Shown here one piece after another: positions 13,347 to 37,683 of a DNA stretch of 41,455 bases (the stretch's first letter is position 1; every line of letters starts with the position of its first letter). The position numbers and the translations under genes are program-made. This DNA comes from an uncultured Methanosarcinales archaeon (GTDB lineage: Archaea; Nanobdellota; Nanobdellia; Woesearchaeales; CAYPCY01). Under the pieces are notes generated by a model. The model did not search any database. It saw only the letters and a program-made list of their open reading frames with translations, and was not told the origin of the DNA. The stretch is from contig CAYPCY010000001.1 of assembly GCA_964409385.1 (NCBI GenBank), positions 1-41,455 on the forward strand, given 5' to 3'.

Positions 13347-15197
13347 ATGAATAAATTTATCATTCCTTTTTTTGTTTTTTTAATTACTATTTTTACTTCT
13401 TTAGCATTAAGTCCTTTTGAACCTTTGTTTGGGAGTGCTTCTGGACTTGGAGATATTTATTCCAGGGCGCCTGCTCTTATTGATTCTATTTTGTATTTGG
13501 TGTTTTTTATTAGTTTGTGCTTGTTTTCTTTGGAGAAGGTTTTTTCTAAGGGTGGTGAGGTTAACAAGTATGGTAAGACTATTGCTGTTGTTTTGGGTAT
13601 TGCTCTTGCTATAGCAGCTAGTATTTGGAGTACTGTTACTGGTTTTAATCTTGCTAATTTTGGTTGGTTGGCGGGAATGTTGTTTATTGGTTTTATTTTT
13701 GCTGCTGTTTTTAAGATTGTTAAGGTTTTAGGTGGTAATAATAGGAAGGCTGAGGCTGTTGCTTATGTTATTATTTACTTTTGTGCTTTTTGGGTGTTTC
13801 CTGTAGTTGCTGAATTACTTGCTAAGATTCCTTGGTTGACTTTAATTTTTAGTTTATTGTTTGTTATTGCTTTGTTGTATTTGTTTACCAGTATTTTTTC
13901 TAAGATTAAACTTGCTGGTGGTGGTTCTGGAAGTTCTGGTGGGGGAGTTAGTAAACCTAGAGAGAAGAAGCCTGGTTGGACTAGTAAGGCTAAATTATGG
14001 TTTAATAAAAGGGGAGTTAGTAAAGTCAGTGATGAGATTAAGTCTATAGAGAATAGGTTTGATAGAAAAGAGAAAAGAAGTATTAAAGAAATAACAGATA
14101 GTATTAATAGTCTTACGAAGACTGGTAAACAAATTATTGAGGTTAAGGATGCACTTTCTAGGTTAGAATCTAGTTCTGATATTGATGATAATATTAGGAA
14201 GGAAATTGATGATCTTAAGAAAGAATTGGATTCTTTGGATGCTGACAGGACTAAATTATCTTTAAGGATTAGTGAAGAATTGAAGGAACTTGGAGATTTG
14301 GAAGCTACTAAGATTAAGGTTTATCAGGAAGAGTATGAACATGTTAAGAAGAGTTTAGATGAGTTAATTAAGGGTCTTGAGAAAGAGGGTAATGCTCTTA
14401 GTGATGATATTGGTAACATAAGTCTTCCTAAAGGTTCTAATCCTGAACTTGTTGAAGCGAGAAAGGATATTCTTGAGTTATTAACTAGTGCTAATTCATT
14501 ACTTGAAGAGAAGAAGTCTAAGATTGATGAGATTAATCATAAGTTGTTATATGTTGTTGGTCAGGAGAATGAGACTAGGGATAAGTTGAAGATTGCTCAG
14601 ACTCTTTGGGATAAGATTAAAGTAGATAAGGAGATGACTAAGGATCAATTAAAGGTTATTAATGAATTAGGGGAGAAGTTTGTTGAAATTAATTTTGATG
14701 AAACTGAACAAGACAAGTATATTAGTAATGTTGCTAAGTATATTAAAGGGTTTGAGGAAGAACTTAATAAGGTGAAGACTGATTATTTTGATAAGGTTAG
14801 AAAGAGTATTGGTGAGTTGAATAAAGCTGTTAGTACTCCTGTTGAAGGGGTTAAGGAAGAAAAAGGAAAAACGTCTAAAACAACTAAGGAAGAATCAATT
14901 TCTAAGAATGAGTTTGCTGAAAAAATCAGAATTGGTTTCGAAACTTTAGGGTTGATTAATGCAACTATTAAATTTTTAAAATCTAGTGTGGTATCTGAGC
15001 CTGAAGCTTCGAAAAAAGGCAGTATTTCAAAAGAAAAATTTGATGATTTAAATGATAAAAAAGACAGATATGAAAAAAAATTAACTGAAATGCAAACTTC
15101 TGATTCTGTCAATGAGAAAGAAGTAACAGAACTAATACAATCCATTGAAAGATTATATACTAATTGTATTAATCTTAAAAAAATACATTCTGAATAA
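13347..15197 (+). CDS. multi-TM membrane protein with Gly linker and long coiled-coil C-terminus (paralog of 4945..6711)
   Basis: Shared N-terminal ~190-aa TM domain, GGGSGSSGGG linker, ~400 aa of K/E-rich heptad-like sequence. Confidence 0.82.
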   Translation: MNKFIIPFFVFLITIFTSLALSPFEPLFGSASGLGDIYSRAPALIDSILYLVFFISLCLFSLEKVFSKGGEVNKYGKTIAVVLGIALAIAASIWSTVTGFNLANFGWLAGMLFIGFIFAAVFKIVKVLGGNNRKAEAVAYVIIYFCAFWVFPVVAELLAKIPWLTLIFSLLFVIALLYLFTSIFSKIKLAGGGSGSSGGGVSKPREKKPGWTSKAKLWFNKRGVSKVSDEIKSIENRFDRKEKRSIKEITDSINSLTKTGKQIIEVKDALSRLESSSDIDDNIRKEIDDLKKELDSLDADRTKLSLRISEELKELGDLEATKIKVYQEEYEHVKKSLDELIKGLEKEGNALSDDIGNISLPKGSNPELVEARKDILELLTSANSLLEEKKSKIDEINHKLLYVVGQENETRDKLKIAQTLWDKIKVDKEMTKDQLKVINELGEKFVEINFDETEQDKYISNVAKYIKGFEEELNKVKTDYFDKVRKSIGELNKAVSTPVEGVKEEKGKTSKTTKEESISKNEFAEKIRIGFETLGLINATIKFLKSSVVSEPEASKKGSISKEKFDDLNDKKDRYEKKLTEMQTSDSVNEKEVTELIQSIERLYTNCINLKKIHSE

Positions 15198-15355
15198 TTT
15201 TTTTTATTTTTTTCTTGTTTTATATTGGTTTACCAATAAAATAAAACTTTTAGTTTTTAACAAAAACTTATAAACAAACTATAAAATATTATAGGATTCC
15301 CAATAAATGAAACAAAAACAATCAATTTTTTAAAAACATAAAACAATAAACTAAC

Positions 15356-15552: not shown

Positions 15553-15560
15553 TTTATAAA
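15553..15560 (+). promoter_or_regulatory. TATA box of the recombinase gene
   Basis: TTTATAAA ending 32 nt upstream of ATG 15592, with an A-rich BRE-like stretch before it. Confidence 0.6.
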
Positions 15561-15564
15561 GAAA

Positions 15565-15592
15565 CATTCGTATAATGTATATTATACGAACA
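15565..15592. other. dif: dif-like tyrosine-recombinase site (11-6-11)
   Basis: CATTCGTATAA-TGTATA-TTATACGAACA; perfect 9-bp inverted arms; ATAA-TGTATA-TTAT core as in E. coli dif; abuts the recombinase ATG. Confidence 0.8.
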
Positions 15593-16386
15593 TGTTAGCT
15601 AAATTAAAGACAGAATTAGCCTTGAGAGGCTTTTCTGACCAAACAAAAAAGACATATTATAGACTTAATAAGAAATTCTTAGCTTTAGCTAAATTAAATG
15701 AAGAACAAATCAATGAAGAGATTATAAAGAAATACCTGGCCTATTTAATACAAAAAGGCCTTTCACCAAGGTCTTTAGCTTTAGAGAAGGCCGCTTTACT
15801 ATTCTATTATAATGAAGTCTTAGAAAGAAACTATAAAAAAATTAAAACTCCTAAGATTCCTAAATCATTACCTACAGTATTGACTAAAGAAGAAGTTAAA
15901 CTAATGTTTAATGCTTCAAGTACTAAGAAAAGCAAACTAATCTTAGAATTATTATATTCCTCAGGATTAAGAGTTTCCGAACTTACTAAACTAAAAAAGG
16001 AAGATATAGACTTTGAGAATGATACTGCATGGGTTAGATATGGTAAAGGTGGAAAAGATAGACTAATAATACTATCTAAAAAATTAAATCAAAGACTAAA
16101 AGTTTTAAGCGGGAATATATATATTTTTGAATACAAAAACAAGCCTATTTCAGAACGTAACATACAGTTAATAGTTAGCAGAACAGCAAAAAAAACAAGA
16201 ATAAATAAGAAAGTAACACCGCATACTTTAAGACATAGTTTTGCCACTCACCTACTCGACGAAGGTGCAGATATCAGAGTAATTCAAGAGCTTTTAGGAC
16301 ACGAAAACTTACAAACCACCCAAATATATACTCATATATCAACAGAGGCTAAAAAACGAATTAAAAACCCACTTGATACATTATAA
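15592..16386 (+). CDS. xerA: XerA/XerC-D family tyrosine recombinase with N-terminal SAM-like domain
   Basis: SGLRVSEL (R), GKGGKDR (K), HTLRHSFATH, LLGH, TTQIYTH (Y); no integron-integrase insertion seen. Confidence 0.85.
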   Translation: MLAKLKTELALRGFSDQTKKTYYRLNKKFLALAKLNEEQINEEIIKKYLAYLIQKGLSPRSLALEKAALLFYYNEVLERNYKKIKTPKIPKSLPTVLTKEEVKLMFNASSTKKSKLILELLYSSGLRVSELTKLKKEDIDFENDTAWVRYGKGGKDRLIILSKKLNQRLKVLSGNIYIFEYKNKPISERNIQLIVSRTAKKTRINKKVTPHTLRHSFATHLLDEGADIRVIQELLGHENLQTTQIYTHISTEAKKRIKNPLDTL

Positions 16387-16511: not shown

Positions 16512-16826
16512 ATGAAGAATTCAAAATATATGGAATTGAAAGGTTTTTTATCCTTTTTAATACTTCACGAGCTGAGCAAACACCGTCACTGTGGAGATGA
16601 TTTAGCCATAAAGATAGGTAAGAGAAAAAAAGGAAAATTAACCCCTGGAACTATATACCCAGCACTAAAAGATTTAAGAAATTCAAAATTAATCAAGTAC
16701 AAGAAGCATGGTAGAAAAAAGGTTTATCAATTAACCGATTCTGGAACTAAAGAGTTAAAGTTATTATATTCTAATTTCAGTAATTATTTTTTTGGATTAA
16801 AACATAAAATTAGAAGGAAGAATTAA
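16512..16826 (+). CDS. PadR family transcriptional regulator
   Basis: L.FLIL.EL...G..L, PGTIYPALKDL, RKKVYQLT..G wHTH signature. Confidence 0.9.
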   Translation: MKNSKYMELKGFLSFLILHELSKHRHCGDDLAIKIGKRKKGKLTPGTIYPALKDLRNSKLIKYKKHGRKKVYQLTDSGTKELKLLYSNFSNYFFGLKHKIRRKN

Positions 16827-17322
16827 CTAATGTTTTAGCTAAAGAACTATTAATACCAACCACATTCTCTCTAGTCTGTAAATCTTTAAATTTCAAGTCT
16901 AAATGTAATTTAATACTCCCATTATAAATTTGTTTTAAAACAGGAATTCCCTTCAAAACAATATTATCAACAGTATCCTCCACCAAATCATAAGTATAAG
17001 CTAACTTCCTAGCCAGTTCCTCAATAGAAACACCCGAATCATTAGAATACAATATTAAAAACACTTCCTGCTCTTTAGGAGTTAAATGAATCTTCTTAAT
17101 ATCAGAATTACCAAATAATTTAGTATCAATAAAATCCAACCTTTCAGAAATTTTATCTAATTTCTTCTCTAATTCGCACAAAAATTCATAATTACCCTGA
17201 ATCTCATTAGTATTCCTGTTTATAGCATCTAAATGATCATCAAACTCTTCCTTTATTGCCTTAAAGATCCTTTTTGAATCTTCAGAAGTTAATTCGTCTA
17301 TGTTAATCACCCAACTATTCAT
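16810..17322 (-). CDS. coiled-coil plus winged-HTH hypothetical protein
   Basis: N-terminal heptad region; LTPKEQEVFLILY...SIEELARKL HTH-like C-terminal domain. Confidence 0.7.
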   Translation of the reverse strand: MNSWVINIDELTSEDSKRIFKAIKEEFDDHLDAINRNTNEIQGNYEFLCELEKKLDKISERLDFIDTKLFGNSDIKKIHLTPKEQEVFLILYSNDSGVSIEELARKLAYTYDLVEDTVDNIVLKGIPVLKQIYNGSIKLHLDLKFKDLQTRENVVGINSSLAKTLVNSSF

Positions 17323-36612: not shown

Positions 36613-37683
36613 ATGTCCTTATTTAAAGAGATTTTATCTTCAGAAGAAACTATTTTTAAAAATGAGAATGCTCTTGATTTTGACTTTATTCCTAAAATTC
36701 TTCCATTTAGAGAAAAAGAACAAAAGGAAATTGCATTTTCCATATCACCTTTAATTAATGGAAGGGATGGAAGAAATCTATTTATACATGGAAATCCTGG
36801 AATAGGAAAAACAGCAGCTTCTAAATTTGTTCTTAGAGATTTAGAAAACGAAACTGAAGATATTTTAATAATTTATATAAATTGTTGGCAAAAAAATACT
36901 AGTTTCAAAGTAATTCAAGAAGCTTGTCATCGATTAGGGTATAAATTAACACATAATAAAAAAACTGATGAACTAATGAAAGTTTTAGCGGGTATGATTA
37001 ATAAAAAATCTGCAGTTATAATTCTTGATGAAGTTGATAAATTAGATGATAATAATGTATTATATATGTTTCTTGAGGATTTATATAAGAAATCTTTAAT
37101 TTCAATCACAAACTTTGAATCATGGATTTCAAATCTTGATAAAAGAATTAGGAGTAGATTTAATCCTCAAATACTTAAATTTAAATCTTATAATTATGAC
37201 GAAACATTTAGAATTCTTTCTGAACGTGCAAAATATGCTTTTTTTGAAAATGTAATTTCTGAACAACTTATAGAGTTAATATCTAAAAAATCATTTCAAT
37301 TAAAGGATATACGTTCTGGAATATATTTGTTGAAACAGGCAGGATTAAACGCTGAAGCTCGATCTTCAAGAACTATTAATGATAAAGATGTTAATAAAGC
37401 AATATTAAATATCCGAGAATTTTCAACTAAAAATAAAGAGATTTTACAAGATGAGGAAAAACTTCTTCTTAGTATTATAAAAGAAAATTCTGGTTTAAAA
37501 ATGGGCGAACTTTTTGTGTTATATCAAGAACAGGGAGGTAAAGGCGTTTATAAGACATTTCAAAGACTTATTGAACAGCTTGATTCTAATAGATTTATAA
37601 CAACAAATAAAATGTCATTTGGTAAAAAAGGAAATACAAAAATAGTAAAATATAGTGGTCTTAAAAAACTTAGCGACTACTAA
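36613..37683 (+). CDS. cdc6: Orc1/Cdc6 family AAA+ protein
   Basis: P..LPFRE, GNPGIGKT, YINC, ILDEVD, RIRSR, IL.ER, DIR; C-terminal wHTH. Confidence 0.92.
   Translation: MSLFKEILSSEETIFKNENALDFDFIPKILPFREKEQKEIAFSISPLINGRDGRNLFIHGNPGIGKTAASKFVLRDLENETEDILIIYINCWQKNTSFKVIQEACHRLGYKLTHNKKTDELMKVLAGMINKKSAVIILDEVDKLDDNNVLYMFLEDLYKKSLISITNFESWISNLDKRIRSRFNPQILKFKSYNYDETFRILSERAKYAFFENVISEQLIELISKKSFQLKDIRSGIYLLKQAGLNAEARSSRTINDKDVNKAILNIREFSTKNKEILQDEEKLLLSIIKENSGLKMGELFVLYQEQGGKGVYKTFQRLIEQLDSNRFITTNKMSFGKKGNTKIVKYSGLKKLSDY

Follow-up and report, generated by a model that had tools for sequence, protein, structure and literature searches.

The xerA gene and an adjoining dif-type site

The window analysed here is a stretch of 41,455 nucleotides from contig CAYPCY010000001.1 (assembly GCA_964409385.1) of an uncultured archaeon that GTDB places in the Woesearchaeales (Nanobdellota; Nanobdellia). 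The source assembly, G000, has 797,906 bases in 15 contigs and is rated 100% complete; all copy counts given below cover assembled DNA. The window encodes a tyrosine recombinase which is immediately preceded by an inverted repeat and a TATA-box-like element. The features are:

15553..15560, + strand: TATA-box-like element TTTATAAA, starting 12 nt before the start of the site and 39 nt before the ATG
15565..15575, no strand assigned: left arm CATTCGTATAA, presumed binding site of a XerA monomer; covaries with the right arm
15576..15581, no strand assigned: central region TGTATA, 6 bp, presumed region of strand exchange; same as the centre of E. coli dif
15582..15592, no strand assigned: right arm TTATACGAACA, holding the predicted transcription start at about 15583 (from the rule TATA start + 30)
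15592..16386, + strand: xerA, tyrosine recombinase of 264 aa (NCBIfam NF040815, Pfam, P. abyssi XerA 4a8e)
16810..17322, - strand: gene for a 170-aa coiled-coil protein with a weak Pfam NPV_P10 match only

The ATG of xerA is the earliest start codon following an in-frame stop. The 264-aa product passed the NCBIfam equivalog model for archaeal XerA (NF040815, recomb_XerA_Arch) with 234.7 bits at a cut-off of 220, and it matched Pfam Phage_integrase (E = 7.2e-46) and the N-terminal SAM-like domain Phage_int_SAM_4. The closest solved structure was XerA from Pyrococcus abyssi (4a8e, E = 8.5e-51). By eye, the alignment with 4a8e showed the catalytic residues R, K, H-x-x-R, H and Y as well as the shared motifs GLRVSEL, GKGGKDR, HTLRHSFATH, LLGH and QIYTH. 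With the models for XerC, XerD, XerS and integron integrase the open reading frame remained below every cut-off; the XerS model NF003462 gave 79.2 bits where 267 are required. An integron integrase with an attI site was considered and rejected (TIGR02249, 201.9 vs 265 bits; NF011946, 122.9 vs 435 bits; no repeated sites in the window or the genome). This xerA is the one XerA-family gene of the assembly. RadA is also encoded (454 bits, cut-off 361), hence circular chromosomes can become dimeric through crossovers. For both XerA and the undecaprenyl-diphosphate synthase of the window, genomes of Candidatus Woesearchaeota and Nanoarchaeota gave the nearest named records.

The site at 15565-15592 reads CATTCGTATAA-TGTATA-TTATACGAACA, i.e. 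28 bp in an 11-6-11 layout. The arms are perfectly complementary at the inner 9 of 11 positions, and the site ends at 15592 with the A of the xerA start codon. The window site has the 14-nt core ATAATGTATATTAT in common with E. coli dif as printed by Kono (2011, PMC3025954). Counted by hand against that printed sequence, 19 of the 28 positions are identical. The initial annotation of this DNA, made from the sequence by a model, had described two perfect 9-bp arms around a TGTATA centre, the core of E. coli dif, a location between TATA box and start codon and an overlap with the ATG. All of this was found at the positions listed above.

The site is unique in the genome

The 24-nt palindrome occurred once in the window whereas none was expected from 100 shuffles. 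In the whole assembly it was found at a single place with up to 3 mismatches, and a control pattern at none. When both strands of G000 were scored with a position weight matrix (described below), the window site obtained 35.6 bits and the runner-up 12.4. The site, which had been proposed to be single-copy, thus has no second copy in the assembly. The symmetry as such is less telling. G000 contains 8 perfect 9-6-9 inverted repeats, and the 3 on contig C1 compare with 2-6 in shuffled sequence. Because such repeats are common in a genome of 30% GC, the case rests on the dif-like sequence, the place of the site and its conservation beside xerA. Two other perfect 9-6-9 palindromes, TAAAACTTGTG...CAAGTTTTA, were near-identical to each other and lie on separate contigs (C1:313805 and C2:16245). 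They may represent a repeated regulatory or mobile motif.

Genomic neighbourhood

Around the site genes for RNA polymerase subunit L, a class I tRNA synthetase, a cyclophilin, the ribosomal proteins L1 and L10 and a KaiC-like ATPase are located. These are ordinary cellular housekeeping genes and nothing virus- or plasmid-like is among them. The gene for the 170-aa coiled-coil protein adjoins xerA in 6 loci of relatives, mostly in convergent orientation, and a methyltransferase gene is beside xerA in 2. A PadR-family gene follows xerA in the window; among the relatives' loci searched it was beside xerA in just 1.

Contigs over the site were obtained from four metagenomic DNA runs, one of which possibly is the source of the window. 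Those from the three further samples span the site and xerA with 0 differences, and no alternative joints at the site or xerA were detected in contigs of the four runs. RNA runs containing this DNA were not found. A second copy of the site bounding a mobile element, a possibility raised at the outset, was accordingly not encountered: G000 has none, the neighbours are housekeeping genes and the runs gave no alternative joints. A T-rich/AT-rich segment after the 616-aa open reading frame (15172-15266) is matched by numerous short metagenomic contigs that are unrelated and have loose ends; this is low-complexity sequence common to other organisms.

The site is conserved upstream of xerA in relatives

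We next turn to the relatives. The sample of the same order comprised 201 genomes, 80 of which had an ortholog at E ≤ 1e-55 (this tally includes three genomes flagged as unpublished). The best ortholog of each genome down to E = 1.4e-64 was taken; with G000 and the unpublished G182 left out this gave 53 loci, and 1.5-2 kb upstream of each gene was examined as far as the contig reached. For the position weight matrix, 30 sites having at most 3 arm mismatches served as input (consensus AGTTCGTATAA-TGTATA-TTATGCGAACT), and its threshold of 15 bits was calibrated on G000 only. A site of at least 15 bits was present within 2 kb upstream of xerA in 41 of the 53 same-order orthologs, a count which is partly circular since the matrix was seeded from the same loci. 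The distance was below 200 bp in 25 loci, 200-600 bp in 8 and 1.2-1.8 kb in another 8. Twelve loci had no full site in the DNA examined. Three of the latter had less than 800 bp of upstream sequence, one carried a variant with a 9-nt spacer, one a degenerate site, and two had one arm at the ATG.

A search that was independent of xerA was also carried out. Matches with at most 2 mismatches were located 36-326 bp upstream of xerA in G084, G177, G187, G140 and G103. At 3 mismatches the 24-nt pattern was no commoner in the 201 genomes than a reversed control, and 25 of 30 loci were without xerA. The looser search was rejected and matches with at most 2 mismatches alone were used as evidence. In other orders of the class, the site was upstream of xerA in 9 of the 20 best orthologs (22 genomes matched), in 6 of them within 150 bp. 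Conservation upstream of orthologs, on which the initial annotation had staked its reading, was thus borne out within the order (41/53) and in other orders of the class (9/20).

The arms of the site covary

An alignment of 45 sites was used in which each column of the left arm was paired with its mirror column on the right. In 42 cells both sides had changed. Shuffling yielded 19.1 (s.d. 4.0), and 0 of 500 shuffles reached the observed value; as the aligned sites are related, this shuffle count is not a probability. When the partner column was slid by 1-3 positions the signal was gone. Examples of covaried arms are TTCGGGTAA...TTACCCGAA and TTCGCACAA...TTGTGCGAA. The matrix scores columns independently and so did not select for arm covariation. 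Covariation of this kind would be expected if one protein reads both arms. Among the 45 aligned sites, TGTATA or the complementary TATACA was the commonest centre, and both orientations with respect to the gene occurred.

The site is placed in the predicted xerA promoter

The TATA box TTTATAAA ends 4 nt upstream of the site. To place it we used the genome itself as a reference. Upstream of 569 long open reading frames of G000, the position of exact TTTAWAWA 8-mers relative to the ATG had a sharp maximum at -30 and -31, with 47 and 18 cases, respectively. A peak of such sharpness indicates that mRNAs in G000 are mostly leaderless, with transcription starting some 30 nt downstream of the first base of the TATA box. 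For xerA the box begins at -39, compared to the modal -30/-31 of the genome. This predicts a transcription start at about 15583, i.e. position 19 of the site, and an atypical leader of about 9 nt. Relative to this predicted start the site spans about -19 to +9.

The arrangement recurs in relatives. We examined 27 proximal sites (that of the window, the 25 within 200 bp of xerA and one from G087). A TATA-like 8-mer ended 0-8 nt upstream in 22 of the 27, compared to 7.3% of 41,477 background anchors in the same regions. In these 22 the distance from box start to site start was 8-14 nt, so that the predicted transcription start falls at site positions 17-23 on the assumption that the rule derived from G000 (TATA start + 30) applies to other genomes. 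Thus, the spacing between TATA box and dif is conserved along with the site. In all of the 22 sites the box was on the side facing away from xerA, irrespective of the polarity of the centre. Such a constant placement is more in keeping with a promoter than with an accessory recombination sequence. The reverse order, with a TATA-like box directly after the site, was seen in five proximal cases and in one family belonging to another order. A scan for bacterial promoters and terminators showed no enrichment and is inapplicable to an archaeon. Archaeal repressors commonly bind just downstream of or over TATA/BRE and block the recruitment of polymerase.

Displaced sites, remnants and paralogs

In 8 of the 53 loci (L005, L010, L012, L072, L074, L077, L084 and L105) a full site was 1.2-1.75 kb upstream of xerA with unrelated genes in between. 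The cargo included a glutamate-dehydrogenase-like open reading frame in L010, and it differed between L005 and L072 which are from the same family. Proximal remnants at xerA were seen in L005, L071, L072, L075, L077, L081 and L084, often a TATA box with a single arm or a degenerate site. L078 had two strong sites 1.1 kb apart. The displaced full sites with their intervening genes look like cassette insertions at or near dif. A simple integration of an IMEX was considered where a full site was distal and a half site proximal, and was rejected: L005, L072, L077 and L084 do not fit since the TATA box stays with the proximal copy.

An open reading frame of about 80 aa with two hydrophobic segments was located between site and xerA in L067, L070, L076 and L085 (also in L044, L074 and L105). 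By eye, four of these open reading frames share a GxYNL...AYKLW/F-like pattern. Its product may be a conserved membrane partner that is co-transcribed with xerA.

XerA-like paralogs with 35-45% identity carried other palindromes upstream (L026, L027, L031, also L025 and L032; L018, L021, L022, L030 and L016). One class was ATATTAAGCGTA...TACGCTTAATAT, another had CACTGGACA-type repeats. For many of these lower-identity paralogs the contig ended 150-700 bp away, a hint that the DNA may be repeated or mobile.

Position relative to the replication origin

Location at the replication terminus, where forks converge, is among the traits that define dif. GC and AT skews of contig C1 were noisy and without a clear switch at the site, in a genome that is split into 15 contigs. 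We used closed genomes of relatives, with the position of the main orc1/cdc6 gene as a proxy for the origin. In G084 the site was 160 degrees away from this gene. In G157 xerA was at 147 degrees, with no full site within 2 kb, and in G016 a weaker site 1.27 kb upstream of xerA was at 92 degrees. For Thermococcales, 122-144 degrees are reported in a review (PMC5357621). In G000 the main Orc1/Cdc6 gene is on contig C4. A second Orc1/Cdc6 paralog is encoded in the window (36652-37647, + strand) 21 kb from the site; its 181.2 bits are at the family cut-off.

A probable linked module for dimer resolution

Very probably the neighbouring XerA has this site as its cognate dif-type target, and site and gene appear to form a vertically inherited chromosomal module. 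That XerA binds and recombines this site and serves in the resolution of chromosome dimers is, judged from sequence and comparative data, highly likely. Each 11-bp arm would be occupied by one XerA monomer. A dimeric chromosome would have two such sites, which would synapse and exchange strands at the edges of the 6-bp centre. The site fills the gap from the TATA box to the start codon; hence XerA on dif should limit its own synthesis. Bound XerA would hinder recruitment of RNA polymerase or opening of the promoter, and less XerA would be made. For such an autorepression, suggested by the geometry, we see about even chances. Points that weigh against the explanation are the 92 degrees in G016, the second Orc1/Cdc6 paralog 21 kb from the site, the 12 of 53 orthologs lacking a full site in the DNA examined and the atypical position of the xerA TATA box. 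The explanation as a whole, a dif-type site and an adjacent XerA as a linked module for chromosome-dimer resolution with a self-limiting promoter overlap, we consider probable.

Possibly the site is a genuine dif that overlaps the promoter without contributing to autoregulation. Linkage would then be kept by co-inheritance of enzyme and site, or as a guard against insertions: insertions at dif would sever xerA from its promoter and hence be selected against (put forward as a second hypothesis for difSL-xerS by Le Bourgeois et al., 2007). The same alternative has been published for XerS (PMC1914069), and it suits the observation that the arms drift along with the protein lineage. Genes are located between full site and xerA in 16 of the 53 orthologs, which means that the enzyme works without the overlap, and in some families the site is upstream of the TATA box. 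However, linkage alone needs no particular spacing, and that from TATA box to site is held at 8-14 nt in 22 of 27 cases. Also, in L005, L071, L072 and L077 the TATA box and one arm were kept in front of xerA, which looks like a retained operator. We regard an overlap devoid of regulation as rather unlikely.

Two further alternatives were considered. Many integration modules have a site directly 5' of the recombinase gene, and the window protein might be the integrase of a mobile element with the palindrome as its attP, attL or attR. The additional, lower-scoring XerA-like paralogs of relatives, often near contig ends, and the variable genes between site and xerA in some of them would suit an integrase. 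Yet a second copy of the site is absent throughout the assembly of G000, the gene is the sole XerA-family member of the genome and surpasses the XerA equivalog cut-off, its housekeeping neighbours are partly syntenic across families, 41 of 53 orthologous loci, from different families, have the pair, and the four metagenomic runs show no alternative joints. This renders a mobile-element integrase very improbable. Alternatively, the palindrome could be a hairpin or the operator of an unrelated factor, e.g. of the PadR family, and its likeness to dif a coincidence in AT-rich DNA. Eight perfect 9-6-9 inverted repeats do arise by chance in this genome and a PadR-family gene does follow xerA. Such a coincidence is hardly credible considering that the 11-6-11 geometry and the 14-nt core are those of E. 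coli dif (PMC3025954), that the centre is conserved as TGTATA or TATACA, and that the site tracks xerA (41 of 53 loci) and not PadR (1 of the relatives' loci).

A bolder reading, and a long shot, is that occupancy of the promoter licenses or blocks strand exchange by XerA and is the means by which these archaea, being without FtsK, control recombination, and that the dif-xerA junction is a class-wide insertion point for cassettes. TBP and TFB would bend the DNA right next to dif, and the bubble formed in transcription would coincide with the 6-bp crossover region. The TATA complex would then be an architectural accessory factor, like ArgR and PepA at cer, and the junction the archaeal counterpart of IMEX and pdif modules.

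The linked and possibly self-limiting dimer-resolution module, which we prefer, has several implications. It would provide a defined pair of recombinase and target for an uncultivated DPANN lineage. With promoter, operator and recombination site on one short fragment, the control of XerA without FtsK becomes directly testable. The naturally covarying pairs of arms and enzymes would constitute a set of orthogonal site-specific recombination systems, and the displaced and half sites of relatives may be taken as natural experiments on dif insertions.

Comparison with known systems

The archaeal XerA/dif systems of P. abyssi, the Thermococcales, Thermoplasma acidophilum and Sulfolobus solfataricus have a single XerA in common with the window. 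As here, the site is described as a single-copy, bacterial-dif-like sequence of 28 bp with two inverted 11-bp arms and a 6-bp centre (PMC2958812, PMC8371274). The difference is in the location. According to Cortez et al. (2010, PMC2958812) dif does not adjoin xerA in Thermococcales, whereas the window site is inside the xerA promoter. The same paper predicted Sulfolobus sites 'close to xerA' (PMC2958812), so part of the linkage may already have been published. The dif of S. solfataricus mapped by ChIP is located between SSO1161 and SSO1162, far from the xer gene SSO0375 (Duggin et al., 2010, PMC3020120). Unlike in Thermococcales and S. solfataricus, the linkage of site and xerA extends here over an order and a part of its class. 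That some archaea carry a xerA/dif module is mentioned in a review (Castillo et al., PMC5357621).

The XerS/difSL system of streptococci and lactococci resembles that of the window in having one recombinase with the site just upstream, kept as a module. The initial annotation had drawn this parallel to streptococcal XerS, correctly so as difSL is described immediately 5' of xerS (Le Bourgeois et al., 2007, PMC1914069). These authors speculated that difSL in or behind the promoter serves autoregulation or guards against dif insertions (PMC1914069). The systems differ in several respects. The window recombinase belongs to a different family (79.2 vs 267 bits with the XerS model). difSL is 31 bp long with an 11-bp centre (PMC5357621), the centre of the window site has 6 bp. 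XerS needs FtsK, and archaea are without FtsK (Badel et al., 2021, PMC8371274). Finally, the promoter element of the window is directly readable as an archaeal TATA box.

Tn3 and gamma-delta work in a similar manner: res overlaps the resolvase promoter so that the recombinase doubles as its own repressor. They are not homologous; the resolvase is a serine recombinase, res has three subsites and is on the transposon, and the process is cointegrate resolution. IMEX and the pdif modules of Acinetobacter are mobile DNA that exploits Xer sites. Some relatives show a likeness to them, i.e. a full site, genes and a degenerate site at xerA. The window itself is without such an insertion, and in four loci of relatives the TATA box is kept with the degenerate proximal copy.

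A literature search retrieved no paper that names both XerA and DPANN, and in the papers searched a TATA-embedded archaeal dif was not found described. The proposed pairing of site and recombinase has strong support from a single XerA, a unique site, conservation at orthologs, covarying arms and a housekeeping context. Novelty could be claimed in part only because a xerA/dif module and the idea of autoregulation are already in print (PMC5357621, PMC1914069). The new element, as predicted from the sequences, is that in much of a DPANN class dif has a fixed place within the core promoter of xerA. By every testable feature the window system is a member of the XerA/dif group; it would function like XerS/difSL while being outside of the XerS family.
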